This document shows, piece after piece, positions 8,479 to 53,738 of a stretch of DNA of 56,019 nucleotides; position 1 is the first letter of the stretch; every line of letters starts with the position of its first letter. The notes beneath the pieces are model-generated. The model worked only from the letters and a program-made list of their open reading frames with translations, did not search any database and was not told the origin of the DNA. This stretch comes from Bacillota bacterium (GTDB lineage Bacteria; Bacillota; Clostridia; Christensenellales; Pumilibacteraceae), in the NCBI GenBank assembly GCA_009781235.1, contig WQYM01000001.1, positions 1-56,019 on the forward strand, in the 5' to 3' direction. A program made the position numbers and the translations under genes.

Positions 8479-9653
8479 TCCAAGATTCTCATGAAAAATT
8501 CAACCCCGTACAATAGGGCACTCTCGGAAAACCCGAACGTGTCCGAATGCAAGGGAGAAGAAAATTCGGCGTCTTTGATGCCAAGCCACGTAAGGCTGCC
8601 CGGGATTCTTGTCAAAAAGCAGGCAAAATCCTCCGCCGTATAACGCGGCGCGGCCGCTTTAAGATTCGGCGCGGCGAGACGCACGCGGGCAAGCGCCGGA
8701 GCGGCATTAATAAGCGGCGGGCAAACCGCGTCGGTACGGAGCTCGTGCGACGTTCCGAATTCCGCGTCGGTTCTCTTAAGAAATTCCTCAAGCCGCGCCA
8801 TGTGCGCCTCGTAATCCGAAAAGTATCTTAGCGTGCAGAGAGCCTCGCTTGAGCCCGCAACGACGTTGCGCGCTGTTCCGCCGGTAACGGCGCCCACGTG
8901 GAAGAGCGTTGACAGCGGTTGGATTTTTTCCGGTAGTTGGTGATTGGTGGTTGGTGGTTGGTCGGCAGATGGACTTGATGGATGCGAATCCAAAACCTTT
9001 TCACCATTTGCCATCCACCATTCACCATCTACCAATTGCGCCAGCGGCTTCAGCGCGTCTATCCCCTTCTCTTTCTCGGCGCAATGGGCGGCACAGCCGC
9101 GAAACTTTATCGAAAGCTCCACAGCGCCCGCCATCATCGCGCCGACACAAGAGGCAAACTCGCCGACGTATAAGGTTGGGTCGAGATGCAGCGCGTAGAT
9201 TTCGGATACCCCTTCAAGCGCTCCTCCGGCAATCATTTGCTCGGCGCCGCGCGCGCCCTCCTCGCCGAATTGGAAAATCGCGCGGATGTTTTGCGGGGGC
9301 TTTTCTTGGGTCAAGATGTCGCACAGCGTTAACAGGATGGCGGTGTGCCCGTCGTGTCCGCACGCGTGCATATTGCCGCTTTGGGAGGCAAAGGGGAGCC
9401 CCGTTTTTTCGGCAATCGGCAGCCCGTCGATATCGGCACGAAAAGCTATGGCATTGGAGGTATCTCGCCCTTCAAAATCCGCGATAACGCCCGTCAGGAT
9501 TTTGCGGTACCGGATTCCGCGCGCCTCTAAAAACGCGCAAATATAGCCTTGCGTCTCTACCTCGTAGCCGCAAAGCTCCGGGATGACATGAAGCTCACGC
9601 CTAACCTGCGTACAAAGCTCCGCTCTATCCAAAACGGATGGACGAATCTCCAC
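8472..9653 (-). CDS. M20D-family amidohydrolase (N-acyl-amino acid amidohydrolase-like) with an in-frame repeat insert
   Basis: MHACGHDGH motif and a LH..PEL start region. The start is uncertain (GTG at 9653 proposed). The longer ORF to 9860 runs through REP-like repeats. Confidence 0.75.
   Translation of the reverse strand: MEIRPSVLDRAELCTQVRRELHVIPELCGYEVETQGYICAFLEARGIRYRKILTGVIADFEGRDTSNAIAFRADIDGLPIAEKTGLPFASQSGNMHACGHDGHTAILLTLCDILTQEKPPQNIRAIFQFGEEGARGAEQMIAGGALEGVSEIYALHLDPTLYVGEFASCVGAMMAGAVELSIKFRGCAAHCAEKEKGIDALKPLAQLVDGEWWMANGEKVLDSHPSSPSADQPPTTNHQLPEKIQPLSTLFHVGAVTGGTARNVVAGSSEALCTLRYFSDYEAHMARLEEFLKRTDAEFGTSHELRTDAVCPPLINAAPALARVRLAAPNLKAAAPRYTAEDFACFLTRIPGSLTWLGIKDAEFSSPLHSDTFGFSESALLYGVEFFMRILEQ
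8933..9035 (+). mobile_element. heptamer-armed element (TTGGTGG / CCACCAT arms) inside the amidohydrolase CDS
   Basis: The arms are 8933-8962 and 9002-9035. The core is CGGCAGATGGACTTGATGGATGCGAATCC. It is translated antisense to the element as DGEWWMANGEKVLDSHPSSPSADQPPTTNHQLPEKIQ. Confidence 0.7.
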
Positions 9654-9701
9654 AACTGCATTATACCCTATTGCCGCCGTCTTGTCAACGAATCCGCAGG
9701 A

Positions 9702-9732
9702 GCGAAAACAAAAAACGAAAACGAAAAACGAG
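9702..9732. repeat. CGAAAAC/CGAAAAA heptamer array
   Basis: GCGAAAACAAAAAACGAAAACGAAAAACGAG, the reverse complement of the array at 359-383. Confidence 0.6.
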
Positions 9733-9779
9733 GGATGGGATTGGGAAGCCGAAAAGCATGGGCGTCCGTAAACCCAACC

Positions 9780-9864
9780 GTAGGGGTCGCAAGTCCACTG
9801 TGCGGCCCGCACCTCATGAAAAAATTGATTCCGGCGGGTCGCACAGTGGACTTGCGACACCTAC
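9780..9864. repeat. REPIN-like doublet: GTAGGGGTCGCAAGTCCACTGTGCG ... CGCACAGTGGACTTGCGACACCTAC
   Basis: Two inverted palindromic units bounded by GTAGGGG and CCTAC. Confidence 0.8.
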
Positions 9865-9906
9865 GAGGCAGTGTCCTGAGAGAATGATTTTTGATGCCGA
9901 CACCTC

Positions 9907-10013
9907 GTAGGGGCGGATTGCAACCCGCCCGAAAACGCAGTGGAGCAGGCTATCATTTGGGCCAATGAAAGCGCATTTCTCATAATTGCGGGCGGATTGC
10001 CATCCGCCCCTAC
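9907..10013. repeat. REPIN-like doublet: GTAGGGGCGGATTGCAACCCGCCC ... GGGCGGATTGCCATCCGCCCCTAC
   Basis: Inverted palindromic units. The same unit recurs inside mfd at 32709-32782. Confidence 0.8.
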
Positions 10014-18197: not shown

Positions 18198-18404
18198 TAT
18201 TGAATATTCCATATTAGACTTGTTCGGAAACTCCCTCGAACTTTTCAAAAAACAGTTTTTGAAACGTCTCGTAGGGGTCGATTTACAAATCGACCCGCCA
18301 AATGTACTTGTTTTAAAGGTTGCGGGTCGATTTGTAAATCGACCCCTACGTTGCATTTCGGTTTTTTAAATCGTGACAGGGTTTCCGAACAAGTCTATTC
18401 AATA
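18198..18404. repeat. nested hairpin: outer 24-34 nt inverted repeat enclosing a REPIN-like doublet (18271-18349)
   Basis: The outer arms are CTATTGAATATTCCATATTAGACTTGTTCGGAAAC and GTTTCCGAACAAGTCTATTCAATA. The inner units are GTAGGGGTCGATTTACAAATCGACCC ... GGGTCGATTTGTAAATCGACCCCTAC. Confidence 0.85.
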
Positions 18405-21697: not shown

Positions 21698-22720
21698 CTA
21701 TATCGGCGCGGATTCTATCGCCGCAATCAGCGTTTTGGCGTCTGTGATGCGGCACAATTCGGCTTTTAAGTCTTTGACGCCGGGGATGCCTTTTAGGTAA
21801 TAGACGAAGTGTTTGCGGAGCGAGGTAACGACATAGCGCTCGGGAAAGGCTTCGAGGGCGTACCCGATGTGGCGCAGGAGGTTTTTTTTAGTTGACGGTT
21901 GACGGTTGACGGTTGACGGTTGTGCCTTGCCAGTTGATATGCTATCATCCCCATCCAATAACTGTCCACTATCCACTGTCCACTGTCCACTTAAAAAAAT
22001 CCCCGGGTTGCCTATCGCTCCCCGCCCGACTATCACCCCCGCGACACCGTAATCTTTTATGCGATCCATCGCTTCCTCACGGCTTGACACGTCGCCGTTG
22101 CCGATTACAGGGACTTTTAGCGCGGCGGCCACCGTCCCGATAGCCTCCCAATCCGCTGCCCCTCCATACAATTGCTTTACAGTGCGTCCGTGTACCGCTA
22201 CGGCGGACGCGCCGGCGGATTCTAAGGCGCGGCAAAAATCGACGGTGTTTTGTTTATCGGAAATCCCGAGGCGCGTCTTTACGGTTACGGGGCGCCCCGA
22301 TATTTGCGTGCTCTTTACGCACGCCTCCACGATCTCCGCCGCCAATTTCGGATTTTTTAAGAGCTCCGAGCCGTCGCCGTTACGCGTAATTTTGGGCATC
22401 GGGCAGCCCATGTTAATATCAATTATATCGAATTTCTCCAGCGCTGGCAAAGAGAGCGCGGCGGAAAAATCGGCCGGGTCGGAGCCGAATAATTGCACGC
22501 ACGACGGCGTTTCGTTGTCGGCCAACGCCAAAAGCTGCGCGGTGTTTTTGCTGTTGTGCACAAAGCCGCGCACCGAAACCATTTCGGTCGTGGTGAGCCC
22601 CGCGCCCGCATCCCTGCAAAGCCGCCGGAACGCAAGGTCGGTATAGCCCGCCATGGGAGCGAGCAAAAGGTTAGACGGGAGCGTGACGGCTCCGATTTTG
22701 ATAGGTTTAATATAGTTCAT
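21698..22720 (-). CDS. dus: tRNA-dihydrouridine synthase with in-frame repeat insert
   Basis: LAPMAGYTD and DINMGCP motifs. ATG at 22720 (MNYIKPIK) is preferred over the TTG at 22747. Confidence 0.88.
   Translation of the reverse strand: MNYIKPIKIGAVTLPSNLLLAPMAGYTDLAFRRLCRDAGAGLTTTEMVSVRGFVHNSKNTAQLLALADNETPSCVQLFGSDPADFSAALSLPALEKFDIIDINMGCPMPKITRNGDGSELLKNPKLAAEIVEACVKSTQISGRPVTVKTRLGISDKQNTVDFCRALESAGASAVAVHGRTVKQLYGGAADWEAIGTVAAALKVPVIGNGDVSSREEAMDRIKDYGVAGVIVGRGAIGNPGIFLSGQWTVDSGQLLDGDDSISTGKAQPSTVNRQPSTKKNLLRHIGYALEAFPERYVVTSLRKHFVYYLKGIPGVKDLKAELCRITDAKTLIAAIESAPI
21883..21999 (-). mobile_element. two-array element (4 x GTTGACG ... 4 x CTGTCCA) inside dus, bounded by TTTTTTTA / TAAAAAAA
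   Basis: The arrays are 21891-21922 and 21961-21991 and are not complementary. The core on the minus strand contains TTGGATGGGGATGA. It is translated as LSGQWTVDSGQLLDGDDSISTGKAQPSTVNRQPSTKK. Confidence 0.7.
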
Positions 22721-22745
22721 TTTGTTCACCAATGATGTCGCGAAC

Positions 22746-22875
22746 AAAATTATAAAATATAAAATATTAAATATAAATTATGGATGAATATTTGAGTAAA
22801 ACAAGTGTTTTTGACAAATAACACGGCAATCAGCAGCCTAAATTTATATTATATATTTTATATTTTATATTTTTT
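22746..22875 (+). mobile_element. heptamer-armed hairpin element (ATAAAAT arms), gene-less copy
   Basis: The arms are 22746-22779 and 22840-22875. The core starts ATGGATGAATATTTGAGTAAAAC. It fills the dus-mazG intergenic gap. Confidence 0.75.
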
Positions 22876-26347: not shown

Positions 26348-26486
26348 TAGCGAATAGCGAATAGCGATGGATTATTTGTATTAGAATCAAAGTTTTATCG
26401 CAAAAAAATTGAAGTGTGCTACCTGCTTTTGATACTAACTAAGAATCATCCGAAGCTATTCGCTATTCGTTATTCGCTATTCGCTA
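26348..26486 (+). mobile_element. heptamer-armed hairpin element (TAGCGAA arms), gene-less copy
   Basis: The arms are 26348-26366 and 26455-26486. The core starts ATGGATTATTTGTATTAG. Confidence 0.8.
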
Positions 26487-29044: not shown

Positions 29045-32000
29045 TCACCCCAGCAAAAACTTCAGCATCCCCGCCCGATCGGCGCCGAACAGGACGCGGG
29101 AGGCGATGGGGTCGATTTTTGCGCCCTTAAAACGGGCGGCGGAGGGCGGGATATCGGCGGTTTTTCTAAACTTTACAAAGGCCTCGGCACGCTTGACCGT
29201 TACGCCCTCGGCTCGAAGGCGGGCGGCGAGGTTTTTAAGGAGGGCGATTAAGATTAGGTTTTCGGTCGGATGCGGGATGGGGCCGTAGATGTCTTTTAGC
29301 TCGGCCATCAGTCTTTTACGCTCGTCCATCGACGCGGTTTGGCTGATGCGGGTGTAGACGCGGACGCGCAAAGCCTTGTCGGCGATATAGTCGTCGGGGA
29401 TAAAGGCGTTGAAGTCGGTAGTGACCTTGACGTCGGGGAGAAAACCCGACGAGTGAGGAATGAGGAGTGAGGAGTGAGGAACGGTGGAAGAACTGCCCTC
29501 TTTTTCATCCGACATTGTGCGCTGCGTTTCGCGCGTTGTGCATTCGTTGTCATCCATCCATCGTTCCTCACTCCTCACTCCTAACTCCTCACTCCACCCG
29601 CCAAGCTCGGCTACCGCTTCCGCTAGTATCCTTGCGTACATCTCATACCCTACCCGCTCGATGTGGCCGTGCTGCTCGCGCCCCAAAATATTGCCGGCGC
29701 CCCTGATTTCCAAATCCCGCATCGCGATTTTAAAGCCGCTGCCAAACTCGGTGAATTCCGTAATCGCGGCGAGGCGCTGGTACGCGCTTTCGGTAAGGAC
29801 TTTATGACCGTCGAACGTAAAATACACGTGCGCAAGCCGGTTGGAGCGGCCGACGCGGCCGCGCAATTGATAGAGCTGTGCAAGGCCGAAGTGGTCGGCG
29901 TCGATGACCACCATCGTGTTGGCATTGGGCATGTCGATGCCGTTTTCGATGATGGAGGAAGCCACCAAAACGCCGTACTTCCCCGCCGTAAACGCCTCCA
30001 CCGTGTTCTCTAAGCTTTCGGCCGCCATCTGCCCGTGGGCAACCGCGACCCGAACCTCCGCGCCCAGCATGTTTTTAACCTGCGCGGCGAATTTGTCGAT
30101 CGACGCGACGCGGTTATAGACGATAAAGGTTTGGCCGCCGCGCCCCGTTTCGCGCAAAACGGCGTCGGCCAGCAGGCTTTCGGCGTACTCGGTAACGTAG
30201 GTTTTAATCGGCAGGCGCTGCTCCGGCGGGGTGTCAAGCACGCTGATATCGCGGATGTGCGAGAGCGAAAAATGCAGCGTGCGCGGGATGGGCGTCGCCG
30301 AAAGCGTCAGCACGTTTACGTCGCTTTTCAGCGATTTTATCTTTTCCTTGTCCGCGACGCCGAACCGCTGCTCCTCGTCGAGAATCAATAAACCGAGGTC
30401 GCGAAATGCCACGTCTTTTGAGAGCATACGGTGCGTGCCGCATACGATGTCGGCGCGCCCGTTTTGCAGGGATTCGAGCGCGGCGGCGATTTCCTTAGGG
30501 GCGTCGAACCTTGTAAGGCTCACGGCATTCACGCCGAACGGTTCCATGCGGTTTTTTACCGTGTTAAAATGCTGGCGCGCGAGGATGGTAGTCGGGGAAA
30601 GAAACGCGACCTGCTTGCCGTCCGCGATTACCTTGTACGCGGCGCGCAGGGCGACCTCGGTTTTGCCGTAGCCCACATCCCCGCACAACAGCCGATCCAT
30701 CACCTTGCCCCGCTCCAAATCTTTTAGGCACTCGTCCGTCGCGGTTAGCTGGTCCTCCGTCTCGTTGTAGGGGAACGCCGCGGCAAATTCGTCGTCAAGT
30801 TCGCGGTTTTTCGGGTATTGGTGTCCCTTTGCCGCCGCGCGCACCGCATACAATTCGGTTAAATCGACCGCCATTTTTGCGACGGACGCTTTTACGCGCT
30901 CCTTGACGCGCGCAAATTCCGCGCCGCCAATCTTTGAGAGCTTGGGTTCCGCTTCGCCTTCGCCGAAAGCAGAGAGGCTGTCCATGTTTTCGACTGGCAC
31001 GTACAGGGTGTCGCCGCCCGCGTAACGGATGACGGCGTAATCGCGCTCCGCCCCGCCCAATTTCAGGCGCGTAACGGATTCGCAAAAGCCGATGCCGTGG
31101 TAGGCGTGCACGACATACGCGCCGATCGCGGGTTCGGTGAACGGGTCGCGCTTGCCCCGCCGTATCACCTTTTTTTGCCCGCCGCCCGGCGCAATCGACT
31201 TGGTGCCGATCAAAACCAGCTTTTCGTCGTGGAAAATGGCACCCTCGATTAGCTTTTCGGCGACGACGTCAAGTTTGCCTTTGCCGCCCGTATTGAAAGG
31301 CCGCAAAGACGCGAAAAATCCCGTCATTTTTTCCTGCGCCGCCGGACTCCCGCAGAAAATAACGACGCGGTAACCGTTGGACATCCACGCCCTAACGTCG
31401 TCCGCAAGGGCGTTAAAATCGCGGTGATAGGCGGGAAAATCGAGCGAGGATTTAAAGTTGAAGAGGACTTGGGGCTTAAAAAGCCGGTTTTGGCTGTCCA
31501 CCGCATGGAACGCGAGCTTTGGACACGCAAATGCAAGCGCAGATTCCTTTGGCGCGAGTTGGCGAATTGAGGATTTTAACACCTCTCCCTTTGAGAGCCC
31601 CGCCTTGTAACGGTTTTCGTGCTCGGTGTAGATGAGGTTGAGTTGGTCGGCAACTTGCTTTGCGTCGTCAAAAATGACGCGTGCGGGTTTAAAAAAATCC
31701 GCAAAGCCGCAGTGATTGAAAAGCGGCATCAAAAACGACAACCGCATATCGTGGGAACCGGAGGTGAGGTCGGAGGTGAGGTGGGAACGGAGGGTATGGT
31801 ATGCGTCCGCGTCTCGGGGTTCGGAGCTCGGGGGACGGGGTTCGAAGTTTTCAGTGAAGGTATCAGGGCACAAGGCACAAGGCGCAGGTACCGGATGAGC
31901 AAAATCTCCTTTATCTGTGCCTTGTGCCTTGTGCCCTGATACCTTTTCTCTCGTATCCAGCTCCGCCAGCGCGCGCGTCAATATCTCGTCCACCTCGGAT

Positions 32001-32947
32001 TCGCTGTAAAAAACCTCGGTATTGGGGGGAATAAAAATGCGCTCTAATGCCTCTTTTGACGTTAAATCGAACGCGTCAAAGGCTTTAATGCTCTCGACTG
32101 TGTCGCCGAAAAATTCGACGCGCACGCCAGTTTCCCTATCCAGCGGAAACACGTCCAAAATATCGCCGCGCAAACTAAACTGTCCCCGCGCCGCCGCTAG
32201 GCTTTCGCGGCGGTAGCCCGACTGCACCAGCCGTTTTGCCAATTTCTGCGGGTCGTAGTCTTTCCCCGCTTCGATCGTGATAAAATGCGCCTCGAACTGT
32301 TCCCGCAGCGGAAACAACTGGCACACCGCCTCGACGGTGGTTACCACAATGCAAGTAGGATTTTGCACCGCCGCCGCCATCGCACTAAGCCTGGCCGCAT
32401 GGTTTTCGGATGAGCTTAAACGCCGATAGTTTAAAACGTCGTCCTTTGCGGGAAGGAGAATACAATTAGGAATGAGGAGTGAGGAATTAGGAATTGCGGA
32501 TGATTTTGATTCCGATTCCCCGTAGGGGTCGCCGTCCCCGGCGACCCGCCCATCCGATTCCCCGTAGGGGTCGCACGGCGTGCGACCCGCCCCCATGGGC
32601 GGCGATTGGCTCGTCAAACACAAAAACTGCTCGCACGCCCTTTTTGCCGCCAATTCGTCCGCGCAAACGTATATTGTGGGGGATAAAGCGTGGGGAGCAC
32701 CAATCCCCGTAGGGGCGGAGGGCCATCCGCCCGCAGTCCGTGCATTGCCCATATGTTCGGGCGGATTGCCATCCGCCCCCACAAAATTATTCTTTTCCCC
32801 GACCCATTCCCCATTCCCCAACTCCGCCGCCAAAACCGTTCGTGCGCCAAACGACAGCGAAAAAGCCGAGATATTTTTATCCCGGGCACTCTCGAGCAAT
32901 TTTTTTGCTTCTCCTTTAAATTCGATTGGGTGATTATTTGGGAGCAT
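29045..32947 (-). CDS. mfd: transcription-repair coupling factor Mfd carrying several in-frame repeat inserts (1300 aa)
   Basis: Walker A GDVGYGKTEVA, DEEQRFG box, RGRVGRS motif and a CarD-like region (VVHAYHGIG). The inserts are at 29451-29595, 31758-31943, 32465-32597 and 32691-32820. Confidence 0.95.
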   Translation of the reverse strand: MLPNNHPIEFKGEAKKLLESARDKNISAFSLSFGARTVLAAELGNGEWVGEKNNFVGADGNPPEHMGNARTAGGWPSAPTGIGAPHALSPTIYVCADELAAKRACEQFLCLTSQSPPMGAGRTPCDPYGESDGRVAGDGDPYGESESKSSAIPNSSLLIPNCILLPAKDDVLNYRRLSSSENHAARLSAMAAAVQNPTCIVVTTVEAVCQLFPLREQFEAHFITIEAGKDYDPQKLAKRLVQSGYRRESLAAARGQFSLRGDILDVFPLDRETGVRVEFFGDTVESIKAFDAFDLTSKEALERIFIPPNTEVFYSESEVDEILTRALAELDTREKVSGHKAQGTDKGDFAHPVPAPCALCPDTFTENFEPRPPSSEPRDADAYHTLRSHLTSDLTSGSHDMRLSFLMPLFNHCGFADFFKPARVIFDDAKQVADQLNLIYTEHENRYKAGLSKGEVLKSSIRQLAPKESALAFACPKLAFHAVDSQNRLFKPQVLFNFKSSLDFPAYHRDFNALADDVRAWMSNGYRVVIFCGSPAAQEKMTGFFASLRPFNTGGKGKLDVVAEKLIEGAIFHDEKLVLIGTKSIAPGGGQKKVIRRGKRDPFTEPAIGAYVVHAYHGIGFCESVTRLKLGGAERDYAVIRYAGGDTLYVPVENMDSLSAFGEGEAEPKLSKIGGAEFARVKERVKASVAKMAVDLTELYAVRAAAKGHQYPKNRELDDEFAAAFPYNETEDQLTATDECLKDLERGKVMDRLLCGDVGYGKTEVALRAAYKVIADGKQVAFLSPTTILARQHFNTVKNRMEPFGVNAVSLTRFDAPKEIAAALESLQNGRADIVCGTHRMLSKDVAFRDLGLLILDEEQRFGVADKEKIKSLKSDVNVLTLSATPIPRTLHFSLSHIRDISVLDTPPEQRLPIKTYVTEYAESLLADAVLRETGRGGQTFIVYNRVASIDKFAAQVKNMLGAEVRVAVAHGQMAAESLENTVEAFTAGKYGVLVASSIIENGIDMPNANTMVVIDADHFGLAQLYQLRGRVGRSNRLAHVYFTFDGHKVLTESAYQRLAAITEFTEFGSGFKIAMRDLEIRGAGNILGREQHGHIERVGYEMYARILAEAVAELGGWSEELGVRSEERWMDDNECTTRETQRTMSDEKEGSSSTVPHSSLLIPHSSGFLPDVKVTTDFNAFIPDDYIADKALRVRVYTRISQTASMDERKRLMAELKDIYGPIPHPTENLILIALLKNLAARLRAEGVTVKRAEAFVKFRKTADIPPSAARFKGAKIDPIASRVLFGADRAGMLKFLLG
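29451..29595 (-). mobile_element. heptamer-armed hairpin element (GAGTGAG/CCTCACT arms) in frame in mfd
   Basis: It is homologous to 6088-6232 in both arms and core, and is read in the same element frame (SEELGVRSEERWM...). Confidence 0.85.
31758..31847. repeat. two-array insert (2 x GGAGGTGAGGT(C) ... CGGGGTTCG-like) in mfd
   Basis: CCGGAGGTGAGGTCGGAGGTGAGGTGGG - core - CTCGGGGTTCGGAGCTCGGGGGACGGGGTTCGAAG. Confidence 0.6.
31859..31943 (+). mobile_element. short heptamer-armed hairpin (GGCACAA arms) in frame in mfd
   Basis: The 29-nt arms are 31859-31887 and 31915-31943 and are nearly perfectly complementary. The 27-nt loop contains CCGGATGAGCAAAATC. Confidence 0.85.
32465..32597 (+). mobile_element. 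composite insert in the mfd N-terminal domain: AGGAATT/GAGTGAG arm + GCGGATGATTTTGA core start + two GTAGGGGTCGC palindromes
   Basis: Read directly from the sequence. It is translated as QSPPMGAGRTPCDPYGESDGRVAGDGDPYGESESKSSAIPNSSLLIPN. Confidence 0.7.
32691..32820. repeat. REPIN-like doublet (GTAGGGGCGGAGGGCCATCCGCCC ... GGGCGGATTGCCATCCGCCCCC) plus CATTCCC repeats inside mfd
   Basis: It is the same unit family as 9907-10013. It is translated as NGEWVGEKNNFVGADGNPPEHMGNARTAGGWPSAPTGIGAPHALS. Confidence 0.7.
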
Positions 32948-33070
32948 TTTCTTGACGGAGCGGTACTATAGCGCGACAAAAACTCTTGTCGCATCTTAAT
33001 ATTATCACTTCCCGCCGCTACCGTCAAGCTAACTTTTCATTTTTTGTTCAAAAATTTTTCCGCCGCCCTC

Positions 33071-33099
33071 TTGACAAAATTTGGAGGAGGGTATATAAT
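33071..33099 (+). promoter_or_regulatory. sigma70-type promoter
   Basis: TTGACA - 17 nt - TATAAT, upstream of the lipoprotein gene. Confidence 0.6.
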
Positions 33100-33172
33100 A
33101 ATATCGTTAAACTGTCGCTATTTTTGTTTTTGCATATTTTCGGTTGAATCCATTTCGAAGGGAAGAATCTTT

Positions 33173-35190
33173 ATGACAAAAAGACTTTTAAAACTCCTCA
33201 CGGTTTTTGGTATCGCTCTGCTTTTAGCGTTTTCCGTTATGGCGTGCGGCATCAATATTCAATCACCCGCGGATATCACCGTTACGTTTTCCTCCAACGT
33301 CCAAACATACGCGACGGTCAAAGTCAAGCCGGGCGCGGTTATGCCGGATGAACCGGAAAAAGAGGGGCTTGTATTCATCGGCTGGTTTAAAGACGATGGG
33401 GTTTTTACGCAGCCGTTTACCGGATTTTCGGGCGTGTCGGCTAGTATAACGGTGTACGCCAAGTGGATGCCCGCAGTACAAGAACCGCCGAACAAAACGG
33501 AAGCGGACATCTTTATCGCTCTGGTTAACGCGCTGCCCTTAACCGATGTATTAGCGAACGAAGACAAAATTACAGAAGCGCGCGCGTATTACGAAACGCT
33601 CTCGGCAACAATGAAAAACGCGACGGATGTCACAAAAGCGCTTGCATTGTTGGAGACGATAGAAAAGCTACTGAGTGAAACGGTGGCTTTGATTATTATC
33701 GTCGACGCGTCTACCAGCACGTGCGCGCCGGTTAGACCCAGCGCAAGTCATAAAATGCCCTATGACGAAGATATGCTGGGTAGTCGGCTTTGGGCTGAAG
33801 TTGAGGGCGCGAGAGCAGCCGTGAACGCGTTGGACGACAATGATTATGTCGGGATAATTTCAATGAATCTCCCCGAGGCAAGACCTCGGGGTATCCCCCT
33901 CAGCTCACTGCGTTCGCAATAAGCAGACCGACGCAAGACGTCGGGGAATAAAACCCGGAGAGATTTAACCATTCTGCTACGCTCCGGCTGGGGTTTACGC
34001 CCGTAGCCCGTACCGCCGAGATTGACGAGGCTCTCGGCAGTATAACCACCTCTCAAGGCACAATATACGATAGTGCGGTTTCGATGGCACAAGCGACTTT
34101 TAGCAATGTTAAAGTCGGGTGTAAAAAGCACATACTCTTTGTGACCGACGGCATACCGCTGGATGGCGATATGTGGCAATGGACGGTCAATAATACCATT
34201 AAGAATATGGCGAAAAGCGGCATCACATTCTCTGCCATCGGCGTCGGACGCGAGGCAGACAGTACGAGCGTAAAGATACCTCTGCTAGAAATGGCGACCA
34301 ACGGCGGCGGAGTATTTTATCCGATACCCGAAGTCACATGGATTTCCGATACCGTGGTGCAAGACGTCATGCAAAGAGAAGTCGAATATTTAAAAACAAG
34401 AACCAACTTTAAAACTATCGAGATTCCGAACGGAACGACAAGTATCGCCGCCTACGCTTTTGCCCGTTATGACAAGCTTAAGAGCATCATAATACCTGCT
34501 TCCGTAACAAGCATCGGAAAGTTGGCGTTCTACGGTTGCGGCGATCTAGAAAGCATCACAGTAATAAGCGGAAACTCCGCATACAAAGCCGACGGGAATT
34601 GCTTGATACGGATAGCGGATAAGGCGTTGATAGCGGGCTGCAATGCAAGCGTTATCCCGGATTATGTGGAAAGTATCGATGAATACACTTTTTCCAAGTG
34701 TGCGAGACTACAGAGTATTGAAATCCCAGACAATGTAAAAATCATCGGCATCGGCGCGTTTGCCGGCTGCAGCGAATTAGAAAACTTTACGATACCGTTT
34801 TTAGGAAAAACAGCCGATGGAAATGCGAGATTTTCATATTTTTTTGGTTATGCCGACAACAGTATTCCACCATCACTGAAAACGATTGCCGTTACGGGTG
34901 GCAGCACTATCGGGGATTTTGCTTTCAGCGGTTGCAGCGGAGTAACGAGCATCACGCTGCCCAACAGTGTGACGAATATCTACCAATCTGCTTTTACCAA
35001 CTGCGTCGGGCTTAAGAGTATAATCCTTCCGTCCGGTTTAACGAGCATTGGTTTCAATGCTTTTTATGGTTGCGCCGAGTTGACAGATGTATACTTTAGA
35101 GGAACTCAAAGCGAATGGGACGCAATAAATAAAAGCAGCTCAAGTTTTCCAATCGAAACAACGATACATTACAACTACATCGGAGAATAA
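33173..35190 (+). pseudogene. surface lipoprotein (Listeria-Bacteroides repeat + vWA + BspA-type LRR_5) interrupted within the vWA domain
   Basis: Signal and lipobox-like MTKRLLKLLTVFGIALLLAFSVMACG. The vWA start is IIIVDASTS. Frame 2 stops at 33922, and the vWA continues in frame 1 from 33952 (TAEIDEALGSITTSQGTIYDSAV ... ILFVTDGIP). LRR_5-like repeats follow (IPASVTSIGKLAFYGC). Confidence 0.7.
33869..33975 (+). mobile_element. about 107-nt hairpin-bearing insertion splitting the vWA gene (boundaries approximate)
   Basis: It contains the hairpins CCCCGAGG-CAAGA-CCTCGGGG and CCGACG-CAAGA-CGTCGG, plus the 51-nt block shared with 73-123. An insert length of 2 mod 3 would restore the frame. Confidence 0.55.
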
Positions 35191-36147: not shown

Positions 36148-36210
36148 GGGCGAGGCACGAGGGCGAGGCACGAGGGCGAAGCACGAGGGCGAGGCACGCC
36201 TCGCCCCTAC
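36148..36210. repeat. 3 x GGGCGAGGCACGA tandem units ending in a GGGCGAGGCACGCCTCGCCCCTAC palindrome
   Basis: It has the same REP unit as 11519-11632, here with one half-site amplified. Confidence 0.85.
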
Positions 36211-38374: not shown

Positions 38375-40276
38375 TTATTCGCGTTTGGCGGCCCAAAGCC
38401 CGGAATTCGCGGCTTTAGATTCGTCGCGCATCTTAACCGTCGAGACGTTGCGCTCTTTTGTAACCGTAAAATGCGAGACGGCATTCGGAGCGTCCGGCAA
38501 GGCTGCGATCGTTTCGGCATAAAAACGGGCGTTGTGCGTCAACACAAAAAGCTGCTTAACGCGACAAGCTTGCGCGGGGAGCTCAAAGCCGTCTTGGCCT
38601 TGTAGGCAATCCGCAAGGCAGTCCTCCGCTATACGGCAAACGGCATCGGCGACGAGCGAAACGGTATCGTCGTCCAAGCCCGAAACCGGGTCGTCGATTA
38701 CCACAATTGTATCCGCGGCGGCGCCGTCGTCCGCAAAGCTCCCCCGGACAAGATGACAAAAGTAAAAGAACGCGATAAAGCCGCGCTCGCCCTCGCTAAG
38801 ATTGTCCGCGACGGAGCCGTCCTCGCGGACGACCTCGTAAACGCTTGCTTTGCCCGCCTTTGGGCGCAAATAAAAGCCGGAAAAATCCGCATCCCGCAGC
38901 ATTCCGTTTATGCCCTCCACCGCCGGTGCGGCGCTTATGACGCTTTTATTGAGCGCGGATATTTCTGCATCCAGCACGCGGAAGCGCTCCGCGCCGTCGG
39001 AGATTTGCCGGGATAGCACGGCAATCTCCCCTTCGAGGTTGTTTTGGTTTGTCCTAAAATACGCAAGCTCGCTTTTGAGCGCATGCGCGATGTGCTGCCA
39101 CACTTTTTGTGTGCACTCCGCCTTTTTTTCCCTTTTTGCGGCGACGACGGCGTTGCTTGTGCGGATTTGCCGGTTAAACCCCTCGATTAGCCCGTTAAGC
39201 TCGGCGCGAAGCGGTTTTAGATTTTCAAGCCCGATAACCTGCGACGGCTCTTTTATTTTATCTGCAATCCGCTTTAAATTCACCTCGACCGCTTGCTCAA
39301 ACAATTCGAGTTTTGACTTGTATTCGGCAAGCTCCAATTTTGGAAACGCGCCTTGCAGATTTTCGCGCAAAACGCTTATAAATTCCCGCATATCGCCGGC
39401 ATACGCGCTTTGAAAACTTTTTAATGCCTCAACCTCCGCTTGATACTGCCCGTCGAAAGCCCCCGCAAATTGCGCGTCAAAATCGTCCGGCAGTTCCTCT
39501 TGGCAATACGGGCACTTCCCGCCTGCAAGCGGCGCATAGCGCGCATGGCCCGCGCGTACCCAGTCCGCAGCGCTTATCGCGTTTATAAAGCGGGAAAATT
39601 CCGTCCCGCCGCTTCCGGTGATGACCTTTGCCAGTAATTCGTTGCCCCGGGTGCCCTTGAGCCTTATCACCTCTCCGACCAGCCGGAATTCCGGGTACTC
39701 GGCGGCGCGCGGGTCAAACGCCGCGTCGCAGAGAACCGCCAAAGCGTCCTCGTCATGCTCTTGCGGATTTTGCGTCTCCAGCGCTTTTTGGGCGAACGAC
39801 GCCTTGAGCTTAGCGCCTGACAGTGCCGCACCGAACCGTTCGCGTAAAGTTTTTGCCCCGACCCAGCAGCTTTCCTGAAAAAATCCGGCCAGCGCGTTTT
39901 TCTCGGATGCTTTTTGCTCCCTTTGGGTAGTTTTTTCTATCGTCGAACGCTCAAGCTCTGCGCGTTCGTCGGACTTTTGCGCAATCTTGCTTTGAATTTC
40001 GGCGTTGTGCTTGCCGACGGTGAATACGCCTTTAAGGTTGCCGTAGCCCCGGAAATTTTCCGCGATAAACTCTTGGTTGAACACAAGCGCGGAATAGTCG
40101 GCGGCGGATTTGCCCGGCAAAAAGGTTAAGCCCTCGGCGCGCCCGACCGCGCTTGCTATGGTGGATTTTCCGGTGCCGTTGCCGCCGTAAAAAAAGCTGA
40201 CGGCGGTCGGCATAAAGCTAACGCCGCTGAAGGTTGCGGCGTTGAGCGTGATTTTTTGAATGGGGCTAGTACGCAT
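38375..40276 (-). CDS. AAA_13-type (RloC/PrrC-like, Rad50-like) ABC ATPase without recognisable nuclease domain
   Basis: Walker A FFYGGNGTGKST, a coiled-coil insert with CPYCQ, signature LSEGERGFIAFFYF, Walker B IVVIDDPVSGLD, and H-loop LTHN. Confidence 0.8.
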   Translation of the reverse strand: MRTSPIQKITLNAATFSGVSFMPTAVSFFYGGNGTGKSTIASAVGRAEGLTFLPGKSAADYSALVFNQEFIAENFRGYGNLKGVFTVGKHNAEIQSKIAQKSDERAELERSTIEKTTQREQKASEKNALAGFFQESCWVGAKTLRERFGAALSGAKLKASFAQKALETQNPQEHDEDALAVLCDAAFDPRAAEYPEFRLVGEVIRLKGTRGNELLAKVITGSGGTEFSRFINAISAADWVRAGHARYAPLAGGKCPYCQEELPDDFDAQFAGAFDGQYQAEVEALKSFQSAYAGDMREFISVLRENLQGAFPKLELAEYKSKLELFEQAVEVNLKRIADKIKEPSQVIGLENLKPLRAELNGLIEGFNRQIRTSNAVVAAKREKKAECTQKVWQHIAHALKSELAYFRTNQNNLEGEIAVLSRQISDGAERFRVLDAEISALNKSVISAAPAVEGINGMLRDADFSGFYLRPKAGKASVYEVVREDGSVADNLSEGERGFIAFFYFCHLVRGSFADDGAAADTIVVIDDPVSGLDDDTVSLVADAVCRIAEDCLADCLQGQDGFELPAQACRVKQLFVLTHNARFYAETIAALPDAPNAVSHFTVTKERNVSTVKMRDESKAANSGLWAAKRE

Positions 40277-41882
40277 CGTCGTCGTCCCCTTGAATGGCGG
40301 GATTGTGGGTTCGGGGCTCGGAATTCGGGGCTCGGGATTCGGGGTTCGGGATTCGGGGTATTAAGTTGTCTTCCTTTAACTGACCACCGACCACCGACCA
40401 CTGACCACTCTCCTCGGGGTTCGGGATTCGGGGTATTAACTCGTCTTCCTTTAACTGACCGCTGGCCACTGGCCACTGACCACTGACCCCCATAGGAGCC
40501 GATGCCCTCGCTGGCCCGCCGTCCCCTGTCCCTACGGTATCTATCCGTTGTTCACCGGCCATCCCTTCTCTCCGCAATTCCTCACTCCTAATTCCTAATT
40601 CCTCATTCGCCTCATTCGCCTCGTTCTCACCTGCCTCGTCCTCCATGGCCGGCAGCGCCAAAATCTCACGTCCGGCGATGCCTTCTAAGTCGCCGCTCAT
40701 GCCGCAGAGGCTTTTAGAAACCTTTTCGATGATTTTTTCCTGCGCCGCCCAACGCTTCTGCGCCTGCTTTTTTTCGAGCGCGAGCTGGCGCGCCATTTCG
40801 TCGTAGGACTCGATGACGCTGCGGATCCGGGAGGCGAATTCCCCGCCCGTCAGATAATTGTACATCATCTCTATTTTGACGTCCTTGCCGCTTGCGTTCC
40901 GGTTGGCGACAAAAACTCTTACGCACACCTCGCGCAAAAGCGAGGCAAGCATCACGGCATAGCGGGGCTTGACCATCCAAATGTTGCCCTCAATCTGCTT
41001 AAAGTCCTCACCGCCGCCGTCGGTCGGGCGAAACACCAAAACGCCGATTTGCGCTTTTTCTTCCGCCATGACGTCTTTGAGTTTTTCGAGCCATTTAGGG
41101 GAATACGCCTTGGCGTTTTTACATTCCCATACAATCAGGCCGCAGTTTTGATAAAATTGTTCGTTTACGGTTTGGCGGACGTCGGAACCTTGCTCGCCTT
41201 TTTTAACCTCTCTAACCGAGTCATAAGGAAAATGGGCACGCAAGGATTGCTCTAAGTCAAGCTCTAAAATTTCACCCTGCGCCTGCTGCGAGCCTTGTTC
41301 GGCCACCTGCTTTGCCGCCGTCAGTTGCTCGCGCAATTTAGAAATGGTTTCTTGCTGTTCGCGGATTTGCGTATAAAAGTCCTCGGACGCCGCCCTTACC
41401 GCCTCCTCGCGGATGAGCTTTTCTTTTGAGAGCAGCTCCTTGCGGGCGGCAAGCTCGGCGTCTTTTTTTGCCTCGGCGGCTTTCGACAATTCCTCGAGCA
41501 GCCCTTTTTGCTGCTCGCGCAATCTGTCCGCGCTGTCTTGGGCGTTTTTGGCCTCGCGGCGGAGCTTCTCGTTTTCGAGCTCGGTGGATTGCTTGGCGTT
41601 TTCCAGCGCCAGCTCCGTCGCTTGCTTGGTTCTCTCTAATTCAAGCTTGGCGTTTTGGCGTTCACGTAAAAGCTTTTGCTCCGCCGCTTGCTCCGCCTCG
41701 CGCACGGCCGATAACACCGCCTGCTTCTCGTTTTCCTCGGCGCGCGACAAAAACTCCCGGCGCAAATTTTCTTCCTGCCCGGCCTTGGCTTTTGTCAGCT
41801 CGTCCTCTATTTGGCGCTGAATGGCGTCGGTTATTTCAAAAGGATTTTTGCAATTTGGGCAAACGATTACGGTTCCGCTCAT
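40266..41882 (-). CDS. DUF2130-like protein: N-terminal CPNC zinc-ribbon-like motif, long coiled coil, PD-(D/E)xK-like core, repeat-derived C-terminal tail
   Basis: MSGTVIVCPNCKNPF. There are about 190 aa of E/K/Q/A-rich heptads. GSDV...IVWECKNAK (D...ExK). From about aa 405 the tail is encoded by repeat elements. Confidence 0.75.
   Translation of the reverse strand: MSGTVIVCPNCKNPFEITDAIQRQIEDELTKAKAGQEENLRREFLSRAEENEKQAVLSAVREAEQAAEQKLLRERQNAKLELERTKQATELALENAKQSTELENEKLRREAKNAQDSADRLREQQKGLLEELSKAAEAKKDAELAARKELLSKEKLIREEAVRAASEDFYTQIREQQETISKLREQLTAAKQVAEQGSQQAQGEILELDLEQSLRAHFPYDSVREVKKGEQGSDVRQTVNEQFYQNCGLIVWECKNAKAYSPKWLEKLKDVMAEEKAQIGVLVFRPTDGGGEDFKQIEGNIWMVKPRYAVMLASLLREVCVRVFVANRNASGKDVKIEMMYNYLTGGEFASRIRSVIESYDEMARQLALEKKQAQKRWAAQEKIIEKVSKSLCGMSGDLEGIAGREILALPAMEDEAGENEANEANEELGIRSEELRREGMAGEQRIDTVGTGDGGPARASAPMGVSGQWPVASGQLKEDELIPRIPNPEESGQWSVVGGQLKEDNLIPRIPNPESRAPNSEPRTHNPAIQGDDDDAY
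40307..40488 (-). repeat. two tandem copies of a two-array element ((GGTCAGT)n - GTTAAAGGAAGAC - (CCCCGAA)n) in the DUF2130 tail
   Basis: The copies are 40307-40409 and 40413-40488, homologous to 44565-44660. They are translated as SGQW.V.GGQLKED.LIPRIPNPE. Confidence 0.8.
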
Positions 41883-44387: not shown

Positions 44388-44458
44388 GTGACCCGGTCAA
44401 TGCGTGTCCCGTGACCCGGTCAATGCGTGTCCCGTGACCCGGTCACCGTGCACGGGAC
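44388..44458. repeat. 2.5 tandem copies of the 23-mer GTGACCCGGTCAATGCGTGTCCC ending in a hairpin
   Basis: The copies are 44388-44410, 44411-44433 and a partial copy at 44434-44458 (GTCCCGTG...CACGGGAC). Confidence 0.85.
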
Positions 44459-44557: not shown

Positions 44558-44564
44558 GAGAATT

Positions 44565-44660
44565 CAGTTTTCAGTTTTCAGTTGTCGGTTGTCAGTTGAA
44601 AGAAGATGGATTTGTATCCTGTCCCCCGAGCCCCGAATCCCGAACCCCGAACCCCGAAAA
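44565..44660 (+). mobile_element. two-array element ((CAGTTTT/CAGTTGT)n - GAAAGAAGATGGATTTG - (CCCCGAA)n)
   Basis: The arrays are 44565-44597 and 44623-44660. It ends 8 nt from the stop of the acyl-CoA synthetase gene. Confidence 0.75.
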
Positions 44661-46332: not shown

Positions 46333-46370
46333 TGTGGGAACTCCTTATATCGTGCGTTAGAGCTTTTATT

Positions 46371-46720
46371 AGTGCAGTAGTGCAATAGTGCAATAGTGCA
46401 ATAGTGCAGTAGTGATGGTTTCTATTCTGTCGTTGTATTTTTAGATAGCAAATAAAATCTTGTTTATTTCTGCACAACCTCTTTTTATGTCATAATACGA
46501 TTGGGCATCTATATATCCCGTCGCATACAGTAGCTCAATCCAATACTCACACTCCGTCGCTTCTTTTAAAGCAATACCAATCTTATTCGCAAAGTCTCTC
46601 TTGCTAACCGCGCGATTTGCTTCAAATACATTTGCGCCGACACTCGTTCCGGAACGTACAAGTTGTTATTGTCACTCACTTTTCATCCTCCACTACTGCA
46701 CTACTGCACTATTGCACTAG
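46371..46720 (-). mobile_element. heptamer-armed element (AGTGCAG/GCACTAC arms) carrying a truncated four-helix-bundle gene
   Basis: The arms are 46371-46414 and 46691-46720 and are complementary. On the minus strand the interior starts GAGGATGAAAAGTGAGTGA (RBS, ATG, 3 codons, stop). Confidence 0.8.
46441..46665 (-). pseudogene. N-terminally truncated four-helix-bundle (23S rRNA IVS-protein family) gene
   Basis: My own translation is QLVRSGTSVGANVFEANRAVSKRDFANKIGIALKEATECEYWIELLYATGYIDAQSYYDIKRGCAEINKILFAI*. It matches the family pattern RSxTSIGANxxEA...SKxDFxxKxxIALKEAxETxYWLxLL. Confidence 0.75.
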
Positions 46721-47778: not shown

Positions 47779-47889
47779 GGTGACTCCTTTTTCACTTAAA
47801 ACTTAAAAATGAAAACTTAAAAATGTTGAATGATTATGGATAAGGAGACAAAAAACATCCTCCATTTTTCAGTTTTAAGTTTTAAGTTT

Positions 47890-48411
47890 TCATTGACTCT
47901 TCCCTATCCTAAACGCCTTCATATTCAGCTCAATCATGTCCGCGCGCTTGGCGGAAATGGCTTTTACGAGGGCGGCTTTGACGGTTTCTTCGTCCTCCGC
48001 CGCCAAAACCTTGCCCATCATGATGATGTTGGCTAGGCTTGCCATTCCGTTATCGGAGGCCAATTGCGTTGCCGGCACGTACACGGCGCAGACGTCGGCG
48101 CGGTTCACTTTGCGGCCGATCAGCGTGGAATCGACAAAAATGGTGCTGCCGGGCTTTGCCGCAGACTCGAACTTATCGAGCGAGGGCAAATTCAGCGCAA
48201 CCAACACGTCGGAAGCGTTGACAATGGGCGAACCGACCGGATCGTCCGAAATAATTACCGAGCAATTCGCGGTTCCGCCGCGCATCTCCGGGCCGTAGGA
48301 TGGCAGCCAACTGACCTGTTTGCCCTTGGTCAGCCCTAAATACGCTAAAAATTTACCGGCGAACAATACGCCTTGGCCGCCGAACCCGGCGAGTAGGTAT
48401 TGGGTAGTCAT
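47890..48411 (-). CDS. 2-oxoacid:ferredoxin oxidoreductase gamma subunit
   Basis: The N-terminus carries GFGGQGV. The start was trimmed to ATG 48411, which has a GGAG RBS. Confidence 0.85.
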   Translation of the reverse strand: MTTQYLLAGFGGQGVLFAGKFLAYLGLTKGKQVSWLPSYGPEMRGGTANCSVIISDDPVGSPIVNASDVLVALNLPSLDKFESAAKPGSTIFVDSTLIGRKVNRADVCAVYVPATQLASDNGMASLANIIMMGKVLAAEDEETVKAALVKAISAKRADMIELNMKAFRIGKSQ

Positions 48412-49228: not shown

Positions 49229-49399
49229 AATGATAAATGATAAATTATAAATGATAAATGTCGGATGGGTTGACTTCCGGAACAAAAGAATTACGCTCTT
49301 TCACAAGCATACAACATCAATAATTTATCATTTATCATTTATCATTTATCATTTGTCTATCATTTATCATTTATCATTTATCATTTATCATTTATCATT
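49229..49399 (+). mobile_element. heptamer-armed hairpin element (ATGATAA/TTATCAT arms) between the alpha and beta subunit genes
   Basis: The arms are 49229-49260 and 49324-49399. The core starts TCGGATGGGTTGACTTCCGGAACAAAAGAA. The right arm encodes the last residues and the stop of the alpha subunit. Confidence 0.85.
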
Positions 49400-50477: not shown

Positions 50478-50631
50478 ATTTACAATTTACGATTTAAAAT
50501 TTACAAATTAGGGATAAGTGTTTTTCGGTTTAAAAGCAAAGTTCTTTTGTTCCGGGCACTCTTATCGGGCTGCCGCAAAAAATCCGTCAATAGTTTGTAA
50601 ATTGTAAATCGTAAATCGTAAATCGTAAATT
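50478..50631 (-). mobile_element. heptamer-armed hairpin element (ATTTACG arms), gene-less copy
   Basis: The arms are 50478-50509 and 50594-50631. The reverse complement of the core aligns with the core of 118-251 (shared CCGGAACAAAAGAAC, CGGAT and TATCCCT). Confidence 0.8.
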
Positions 50632-50657
50632 GGCCACGACCGTTTTTGGTAATTCGA

Positions 50658-50864
50658 CTATTTTTGGACACTGATCACGCAATCAGGGCACATCGTCGCA
50701 CAAAAAGCGCACGAAATACACAGCTCTTCGTCCAACACGACCGCCGGGTGGTGGCCTTTTGCGTTAATCGCGTGTTTTGCGATCCCGATAATTTTTTTCG
50801 GGCACGCCTCGATGCACAGGCCGCAGCCCTTGCATAAATCCGTTTGAATGATTACTTTTGACAT
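50658..50864 (-). CDS. 2 x [4Fe-4S] ferredoxin-type delta subunit
   Basis: CKGCGLCIEACP and CISCAFCATMCP. Confidence 0.88.
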   Translation of the reverse strand: MSKVIIQTDLCKGCGLCIEACPKKIIGIAKHAINAKGHHPAVVLDEELCISCAFCATMCPDCVISVQK

Positions 50865-50897
50865 GTGGTTATACCTCTCTAAAATCTTTCAACCTCT

Positions 50898-51125
50898 CCG
50901 CACCGGAGGTGCGGAATGTGGGTAACCCGGGGTTAAGCGTAGCGCAACCCCGGGTGAAGGAAAACGCCCTCTCTTGCGCACCGTAGGTGCGCGACCGGTG
51001 GTATGTTTTGTTGCTTACCGGATTTCGGGTCGCGCACCTACGGCGCGCAAGGCCGCCGTTCGACCGCGCCCCGGGTTACGCTACGCTCACCCGGGGTTAC
51101 CCACATTATACGCCTTCGGCGCATT
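50898..51125. repeat. about 230-nt compound palindrome (outer GGGTAACCCGGGG... arms, inner GCGCACCGTAGGTGCGC units)
   Basis: The outer arms are 50916-50954 and 51069-51106. The inner units are 50974-50996 and 51028-51050. Flanking hairpins are CCGCACC-GGA-GGTGCGG and GCC-TTC-GGC. Confidence 0.8.
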
Positions 51126-51172
51126 GTAAGGTTTGGCGCTACGAAGCACCGAAGGTATAATTCCTAGGGCAT

Positions 51173-51474
51173 AAAAAAATCCCCACGCAAAACACGTAGG
51201 GACGAATTTTTTATCCGCGGTACCACCCAAATTGACGCATCGCTTTTACAGCGAAACATCCGACTCATTCGACCGATAACGGAGTCAACCCGGATTTGCT
51301 TACTGACCCTCTTGCAGACCGACGATGGCATCGGCCCCTACAAAAACTGTTCGGCAATCTGCTAAAAAAGGGAGAAATCCTAAGAACTTTGCACCGCCTT
51401 TCACCAAGCAGCGGCTCTCTTTGGCTAAAATAACAAAGGATTTATGGCTTTTGTCAAGCGCATTTGATATTGTG
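51173..51474 (-). promoter_or_regulatory. T-box riboswitch leader
   Basis: Minus-strand motifs in order: AGAGAG (51415-51420), GGTGAAA (51399-51405), AGTA, F-box CCGTTA (51277-51282), T-box TTTGGGTGGTACCGCGG (51215-51231), then the terminator TCCCTACG-TGTTTTG-CGTGGGGATTTTTTT (51173-51203). Confidence 0.8.
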
Positions 51475-51480
51475 AATACA

Positions 51481-51509
51481 ATATTACACTGAATTTTTAG
51501 ATTTGTCAA
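51481..51509 (-). promoter_or_regulatory. sigma70-type promoter of the T-box leader
   Basis: On the minus strand: TTGACA - 17 nt - TAATAT. Confidence 0.65.
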
Positions 51510-51535
51510 GCGAAAACAAAAAGATTTTCTTAGGA

Positions 51536-51766
51536 CTAGTCAATTAAATCTTCAAAAGAACAATTAAAAAAATCCATGAGCAAGCATATTTTCGTTAAAG
51601 TCGGTTCACTTTCGCCTCTTAGCCAAGCAGACACTGTTGTTTGATCAACTGAAACTTTCGATGCCAATACTGTTTGACTTATATTATTATCATTCATAAA
51701 TGCTTTCAAGTTTTCGATGAACGCCCGTTGATAGTCTTTCATGTAACTTATTATAGGGAAAAGCAC
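51536..51766 (-). CDS. XRE-family HTH protein
   Basis: ISQTVLASKVSVDQTTVSAWLRGESEP helix-turn-helix. The start is uncertain (GTG 51766 or ATG 51742). Confidence 0.7.
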   Translation of the reverse strand: MLFPIISYMKDYQRAFIENLKAFMNDNNISQTVLASKVSVDQTTVSAWLRGESEPTLTKICLLMDFFNCSFEDLID

Positions 51767-53736: not shown

Positions 53737-53738
53737 AC

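Follow-up and report, generated by a model that had tools for sequence, protein, structure and literature searches.

Within a 56,019-nt stretch of contig WQYM01000001.1 (GenBank assembly GCA_009781235.1, a Bacillota bacterium of the Pumilibacteraceae; the whole stretch is referred to below as the window), the mfd gene contains a 144-nt palindromic element, here called E4, which is read in frame and adds about 48 residues to Mfd. A homologous copy, E1, is read in frame in an unrelated gene of the same window. We consider it likely that E4 is a member of a family of short, non-autonomous palindromic repeats, surviving in frame in a linker of mfd, and that the founder of that family already carried a TTA in place of one of the TGA triplets of its heptamer arms. 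The features on which this proposal is built are as follows.

29045-32947, minus strand: host mfd, open reading frame (ORF) intact, with all Mfd domains (Pfam, ORF list and alignment to relatives)
29451-29594, minus strand: E4, a 144-nt palindromic repeat supplying about 48 Mfd residues in frame (arms, hairpin and frame scan)
29565-29594, minus strand: proximal arm as the host reads it, GAGTGAG GAGTTAG GAGTGAG GAGTGAG, with TGA in two frames and the third open
29582-29584, minus strand: TTA codon, a variant of TGA in unit 2 of the sense arm, which leaves the host frame open
29551-29559, minus strand: GGATGGATG box just within the proximal arm, translated W-M; an orientation-specific motif common to many heptamer-armed elements of the window
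29482-29564, minus strand: core of E4, containing a small inner hairpin, with 64% identity to the core of the other copy
29451-29481, minus strand: distal arm, of CTCACTC type on the sense strand, encoding PHSSLLIPHSS and stop-free in all three frames
6088-6232, minus strand: E1, the homologous copy, in frame in a conserved tetratricopeptide repeat (TPR)-like protein (alignment to E4)
5353-7239, minus strand: ORF of the E1 host, 628 aa, with five homologues that do not have the 48-residue segment

Structure of the element in mfd

On the plus strand, GAGTGAG-type heptamers (29451-29481) open E4 and complementary CTCACTC-type heptamers (29565-29594) close it, the two heptamer arms enclosing a core of ∼85 nt. 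Tandem Repeats Finder reports period 7 at 29454-29481 (4.0 copies) and 29565-29595 (4.4 copies), in head-to-tail 7-nt units. The complementary arms (29451-29488 and 29557-29594, 38 nt each, 92% complementary) reach beyond the heptamers into unique sequence, and the element is predicted to form a single long hairpin on either strand, with a folding energy of -80 to -84 kcal/mol (z of -10 to -12 relative to shuffled sequences). A 15-mer taken from the arm occurs 15 times in the window, where 0.02 occurrences are expected. An earlier note on this DNA had described the sequence from 29451 onwards, and the letters bear that description out. The element itself stands, with a correction to its extent: it had been given as 145 nt (29451-29595), and it is 144 nt, or 48 codons, with its final base at 29594 and base 29595 already in the flank.

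E4 has no ORF of its own, five of its six frames being closed. An Rfam scan of the window gave zero matches to the element at gathering thresholds, and below them just generic microRNA-precursor-like hairpins. The same scan found no rRNA in the window; E4 sits in mfd and not in a helix of 23S or 16S rRNA. We also considered an intein or an intron. This was dropped, as the frame is simply open and a matching RNA or protein family is absent.

A second copy and common origin

The first point to note is that E1 and E4 are homologous, as the earlier note had proposed. Overall identity is 77%, made up of 93% in the left arm, 64% in the core and ∼100% in the right arm. A block of 41 nt, which includes 10 nt of non-repeat sequence, is 100% identical (6192-6232 and 29554-29594); the shared 40-mer quoted previously belongs to this block. 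The core alone is significant: aligned without the arms and the identical block it scores 22, whereas dinucleotide-shuffled sequences have a mean score of -13.4 (sd 7.5) and none of 5000 reaches 22. E1 is 145 nt long, and the one-base difference in length from E4 is located at the distal arm boundary, where every frame is stop-free.

The homology between the two copies does not extend past the arms into the flanks, which are unrelated. This identifies a repeated element and not a duplicated piece of a host gene. Segmental duplication of host sequence, which had been named in one of the outcomes that would overturn the idea, is ruled out by the unrelated flanks, and all available orthologues of the two hosts are without the segments. 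E1 and E4 are separate insertions of one element family.

When the window and 1.2 Mb of fetched loci were searched with a core model (nhmmer), E1 and E4 were the only core-homologous copies to emerge, setting aside the same loci in a second assembly. Their core was absent among the matches listed from a degenerate three-unit arm scan of genome contigs, which covered at least 120 loci from many phyla. A pattern spanning the arm-core junction had no match in the JGI metagenomes, a collection which does not hold the source contig, and a shorter version had none in viral contigs.

The host genes and the sites of insertion

The product of mfd has the Pfam set UvrB_inter, CarD_TRCF_RID, DEAD, Helicase_C and TRCF, which supports the earlier identification of the gene as mfd. 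At 1284-1300 aa the protein exceeds its nearest relatives, which have 1121 aa. In an alignment with six Mfd orthologues (50-61% identity, from Firmicutes/Clostridiales metagenome-assembled genomes), a 46-column gap lies where E4 sits. The host of E1 is a conserved, uncharacterised TPR-like protein with no Pfam match, and five homologues found by BLASTP (45-60% identity) have a clean 48-column gap exactly at E1. Both segments are, judged from these comparisons, lineage-specific insertions relative to the orthologues and not ancestral sequence. No insert-free allele of either host was found in a look-up of 90% identity clusters. The description of the two hosts as essential-type genes was overstated, given the uncharacterised nature of the second. 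In model bacteria mfd is dispensable.

The position of E4 within Mfd was placed by structure alignment. The alignment to Mycobacterium smegmatis Mfd (6ac6) is interrupted exactly at the insert: the translocase module is aligned up to query residue 246 (residue 1046 of 6ac6), and domain D7 picks up again at query residue 304 (residue 1064). This places E4 in the linker between D6 and D7. For the last 433 residues of Mfd an AlphaFold2 model, built with 39 aligned sequences, gives a predicted local distance difference test (pLDDT) score of 30-37 and shows no secondary structure over residues 256-300, with a pLDDT above 90 both in the folded D6 core upstream and in D7 downstream of the insert. The residues encoded by E4 are thus predicted to be disordered, forming a passenger loop.

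E4 is the last of four separate lineage-specific in-frame insertions in Mfd, all of which are built of repeats. The other three are listed here.

32690-32820, minus strand: first insertion, two GTAG-tagged palindromes and CCCATTC units (repeat search, Mfd alignment)
32464-32600, minus strand: second insertion, two GTAG-tagged palindromes and a half element whose AATTAGG/GAGTGAG units run antisense to mfd
31800-31945, minus strand: third insertion, a TCGGGGT array and a GGCACAA/TTGTGCC hairpin (repeat search, Mfd alignment)

The reading frame

Both copies are read as SEELGVRSEERWM... within long minus-strand ORFs, and the peptide spanning E4 in Mfd includes ...GGWSEELGVRSEERWM... A frame scan confirmed the earlier claim that the element is read in the same frame in both hosts: one register is common to E1 and E4 across the proximal arm and the entire core. 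Of the six frames of each copy, exactly one is free of stops, namely that of the host. In the sense arm of E4, units 1, 3 and 4 contain TGA; unit 2 contains TTA, at 29584-29582 of the minus strand, and this TTA lies in frame as had been noted ((32947-29584) mod 3 = 0). Since (GAGTGAG)n cycles TGA through all three frames every three units, and unit 2 carries TTA, a single register of the six is open. Any copy within an intact gene is forced into that register, and the shared frame therefore adds almost no information. The frame-selective survival put forward in the earlier note is thus right, yet it comes close to a logical necessity. Its alternative proposal, a subfamily pre-adapted to coding insertion, fares better as an account of the shared TTA. 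Because the TTA lies inside the 41-nt identical block, a founder which already carried it would be the more parsimonious and economical reading, with gene conversion as the alternative when there are two copies.

GAGTGAG-armed elements from other sources behave similarly. Among 53 such foreign elements from metagenomes, 26 have at least one frame that is stop-free across the element. Eight of the elements lie in ORFs of 120 aa or more, and all eight are open in the VRSEE register. Two of these eight, both from other metagenomes and with cores unrelated to that of E4, are translated in frame within real genes: one at L122:3228-3338, in the central GH3_M domain of a GH3-family gene, and one at L158:2004-2113, in a gene for a 1028-aa glycosyltransferase. 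A further candidate, L007, was rejected as an in-gene case, its element being upstream of the likely start codon.

There is no sign of selection on the encoded peptide. The ratio of nonsynonymous to synonymous substitution (dN/dS) between E1 and E4 is 0.86 (0.73 for the core), and the differences between the copies are spread as 10, 12 and 14 over the three codon positions. It seems that the peptide evolves almost neutrally, with the avoidance of stops apparently its sole constraint. A profile of the peptide searched against 1.84 billion representative proteins gave just arm-like low-complexity matches, in a set where the hosts are hidden behind insert-free cluster representatives.

Proposed origin and alternative explanations

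We propose that E4 entered mfd at the flexible linker which joins the translocase module (D5/D6) to the C-terminal D7, and that its sister copy landed in a linker of the unrelated TPR-like protein. Several properties may account for its persistence: a length which is a multiple of three, a position in the sole stop-free register of six, provided by TTA for TGA in one heptamer of the sense arm, a variable interdomain linker as the target, and ∼48 extra residues which would be carried as a disordered passenger loop. Mfd would presumably still be made and functional. The shared frame would then be a mark of survivorship, filtering a subfamily that had the TTA unit from its founder onwards. E4 is one of many and diverse heptamer-armed hairpins in this genome, some larger ones of which carry a PF05635 gene in the manner of classical 23S rRNA intervening sequences.

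A number of observations weigh against this proposal. No target-site duplication was seen at E1 or E4, where the empty site is known at the protein level and a duplication of 1-2 nt could hide in the arms; no transposase was found in the window; and the window did not yield a parent element with GAGTGAG arms. It is on account of these three absences that we infer transposition, and an enzyme to bring it about, and do not claim either as observed. Just two copies of the family are visible. Their arms are much better conserved than their cores, which could mean concerted evolution or structural selection and not the simple decay of a dead insertion. GAGTGAG arms are found with unrelated cores in many phyla, so that the arms alone are no evidence of homology, and the GGATG box described below is absent from the 53 foreign GAGTGAG elements. 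Finally, the 38-bp stem, if formed in RNA, might be cut by RNase III.

This last point leads to the idea that the hairpin was co-opted as a regulatory RNA or DNA structure, serving for example as an RNase III or ribosome-pausing site which tunes mfd expression or domain-wise folding, with an open frame needed just for the passage of ribosomes. The stability of the stem on either strand and the superior conservation of the arms are in keeping with such a role, and related stem-loops in 23S rRNA are RNase III substrates (PMC4990558). Nevertheless, we regard co-option as unlikely: the hosts are unrelated and have no obvious shared regulation, dozens of such hairpins lie at arbitrary places in the same genome, no Rfam family scores above threshold, and with two copies there is no covariation, the single arm difference between them being uncompensated. 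A selected protein module, one that endowed both Mfd and the TPR-like protein with a novel property (an interaction or localisation signal, for instance), would explain why 48 codons have been kept open in two genes and why the first 13 residues are identical. The identity of these first residues is, however, already explained by the conservation of the translated arm at the DNA level. The near-neutral dN/dS, the even spread of differences over codon positions, the predicted lack of structure and the outcome of the profile search make a protein module quite improbable.

Among the long simple repeats of bacteria, heptamer arrays are the most frequent, with slippage as their presumed source (PMC4679880), and identical arms surround unrelated cores in many organisms. 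The two elements could on this basis have formed independently in situ, through heptamer slippage and template switching at quasi-palindromes, with no transfer between loci. Against this, the cores of E1 and E4 are significantly homologous, the 41-nt identical block extends over 10 nt of non-repeat sequence, and the same variant unit occupies the same position in both copies, and we give an origin in situ very little credence. An artefact of assembly or binning, with a repeat-induced chimera within the gene, has to be considered for any metagenome-assembled source, where hairpin repeats are hard to assemble. A second, separate ENA assembly gives both genes with their elements identical, with 0 differences inside them, which makes an artefact unlikely; both insertions, moreover, hold long ORFs open in the sole possible frame. 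Taking both points together, we find an artefact scarcely credible, and our preferred reading remains that of a palindromic repeat which was retained in frame.

Comparison with known systems

[quoted passage not shown] It works like an RPE and is probably not a member of that group by sequence; nor does it have the target-site duplication which a classical MITE requires. As summarised in PMC10969869 from Ogata et al. 2000, the hallmark of RPEs is the presence of in-frame palindromic repeats of ∼150 bp in unrelated genes. With RPEs as outlined in that summary E4 shares the character of a palindromic repeat of ∼100-150 bp with no transposase, placed in frame in unrelated housekeeping genes, which adds a peptide of 30-50 residues where the fold permits, and whose family copies are read in one conserved frame. 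The host, in contrast, is an uncultured Clostridia lineage and not an obligate intracellular alphaproteobacterium, and the arms of E4 are tandem heptamers containing stop codons, so that its open frame hangs on a variant unit. Two copies of the E4 family have been seen so far, and its peptide is predicted to be disordered. A relation to RPEs by sequence is considered unlikely, given the different phylum and arm structure.

Like a MITE, E4 is small, has 38-nt terminal inverted repeats, exists in more than one copy and has no coding capacity of its own, and in-frame fusions have been noted for some MITEs too (PMC10969869). It differs in having no visible target-site duplication and in having arms which are simple-sequence arrays and not unique transposase-binding ends. 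REP and REPIN sequences (repetitive extragenic palindromes, mobilised by REP-associated tyrosine transposases, RAYTs) are likewise short dispersed palindromic repeats without target-site duplication; E4 is much longer (144 nt against a palindrome of 20-40 nt), has heptamer arms, and ends in GAGTGAG...CTCACTC without a GTAG/CGTC tag. We know of no parent insertion sequence with ends that match those of E4.

The IVSs of rRNA are stem-loops of ∼100-450 nt, and that of Coxiella 23S rRNA has tandem heptamers in its stem, like E4, with an S23p ORF in the loop, and is excised by RNase III (PMC4990558). The likeness extends to the PF05635 gene found between inverted heptamer arrays in two elements of the window and in elements from Rudanella, Nostoc, a Clostridia genome and a metagenome. 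E4 differs in lying in a protein-coding gene and in having no ORF of its own. Where RNase III cuts an IVS out, E4 would presumably stay in the transcript and be translated.

Heptamer arrays as such are abundant in some genomes, including those of Xanthomonas, Nostoc, Beggiatoaceae and Bacteroidetes (PMC4692102; PMC4679880), and often form convergent pairs able to fold into stem-loops (PMC4692102). In forward orientation they place stops in all frames, which restricts copies within genes (PMC4679880). The heptanucleotide repeats described to date (the short tandemly repeated repetitive (STRR) sequences of cyanobacteria, TAACTGA in Beggiatoaceae, GGGAATC in Xanthomonas) have the tandem 7-nt units of the E4 arms. 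The literature on them is mainly intergenic, whereas in E4 the arrays form the arms of a defined element, whose homologous core occurs in two genes.

Until now, selfish palindromes that settle in frame in housekeeping genes were largely a Rickettsia curiosity. The same outcome now appears in an uncultured gut-type Clostridia lineage, with a different element structure whose stems consist of simple 7-nt repeats rich in stop codons. The four repeat insertions in Mfd show how much foreign sequence interdomain linkers absorb, and they carry a warning for annotation, since a long 'extra' loop in a protein of a metagenome-assembled genome may turn out to be a repeat.

PF05635 genes within inverted arrays

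Two larger elements of the window, built on the same plan as E4, contain PF05635, the 23S rRNA intervening-sequence protein family, which is weakly bAvd-like.

53291-53737, minus strand: element with 39-nt inverted TCGGGGT-type arms (95% complementary) and a PF05635 gene at 53331-53687, inserted between ABC transporter genes
46370-46719, minus strand: inverted 8-mer arrays enclosing a truncated remnant of a PF05635 gene (46444-46665)

The same arrangement was found in Rudanella (Bacteroidota; L060:3987-4505), in Nostoc (Cyanobacteria; L094:4300-4880), in a Clostridia genome (L110) and in a metagenome family (L142, L147 and L160, the last at L160:1724-2206). These loci had been fetched solely for containing GAGTGAG arrays. 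Arrays are present on both sides of seven of the eight PF05635 ORFs, the eighth running off its contig, compared with 151 of 4105 ORFs overall (3.7%). At L160, moreover, the leader of the PF05635 cassette agrees at 29 of 36 nt with a short hairpin of the same contig, a score reached by none of 2000 shuffles. Short hairpins are, on the strength of this analysis, probably cargo-less derivatives of PF05635 cassettes; for E4 itself we only infer such a derivation. The PF05635 protein is not, to our knowledge, a known transposase.

The association of PF05635 with arrays links heptamer repeats, rRNA intervening sequences and the common 'four-helix-bundle' genes, whose function is poorly understood. 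As a tentative extension, which we hold to be possible and on present evidence rather doubtful, there could be an unrecognised cross-phylum class of mobile hairpin cassettes, consisting of PF05635 genes within inverted heptamer arrays. E4 would be a cargo-less member of this class and the rRNA intervening sequences its rRNA-resident subset. The class would have undergone a massive expansion in the present Clostridia lineage, both in coding linkers, in frame, and between genes, and PF05635 could act as the long-sought maintenance or mobility factor of these elements.

Heptamer-armed hairpins in the rest of the window

A total of 44 period-7/14 arrays, or 7.9 per 10 kb, were counted in the 56 kb of the window. 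Around mfd in the two closest relatives the corresponding densities are 1.3 and 0 per 10 kb. The majority are inverted pairs around a core, and the heptamers used are many and different. Beyond mfd and the host of E1, in-frame elements occur in three further genes, for an M20 peptidase, a dihydrouridine synthase (Dus) and a DUF2130 protein, the last at its 3′ end. These elements, and the intergenic hairpins with which the in-gene ones were compared, are given below.

8932-9039: heptamer-array element in the M20 peptidase gene (ORF 8472-9860), translated in frame
21891-21991: heptamer-array element in Dus (ORF 21698-22747), in frame, with GTTGACG and ACTGTCC arrays which are non-complementary
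40298-40626: chain of arrays forming the last ∼110 codons of the DUF2130 gene (ORF 40266-41882)
4361-4516, 22747-22873, 26348-26486, 47794-47890, 49229-49399 and 50478-50630: intergenic hairpins

Composition separates the two groups cleanly: intergenic hairpins have 17-35% G+C and stops in all six frames, and in-gene ones have 48-62% G+C and one to four open frames. The DUF2130 chain includes a unit [GGTCAGT]n-20 nt-[CCCCGAA]n which is repeated twice. An inverted copy of this unit lies 4 kb away (44564-44658), and the pair brackets two genes.

A GGATG box is found 0-20 nt inside one arm, in fixed orientation, at 14 of 42 arrays, where 2.6 would be expected at random. Examples are at 22782, 31893, 32498 and 49263 on the plus strand, and at 29551-29559 (in E4) and 6196-6200 on the minus strand. 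In two cases the box reads GGAGGATG, which resembles a ribosome-binding site followed by a start codon. The box was considered as a general hallmark of GAGTGAG-armed elements, and this was dropped in view of the foreign elements.

The GTAG-tagged palindromes of the mfd insertions belong to a separate, GC-rich and REP-like family (CGTAGGGGTCG...CGACCCGCC), found at 32515-32600, 32700-32780, 18261-18359 and 9903-9931; several are in frame in the N-terminal part of mfd. Upstream of mfd, where relatives have pth directly adjacent, two surface-protein-like genes on the opposite strand intervene (33044-35190; Flg_new repeat and BspA-type leucine-rich repeat (LRR)), and a 54-nt sequence within this region (33914-33967) recurs at 70-123 with 96% identity. 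The ∼1.8 kb at 50650-52490 have small ORFs only, none of at least 100 aa, and gave no tRNA or Rfam matches. Tandem repeats which are not heptameric also occur between genes, namely a perfect 23-nt repeat of 2.5 copies at 44388-44445 and a 13-nt repeat of 3.9 copies at 36148-36198.

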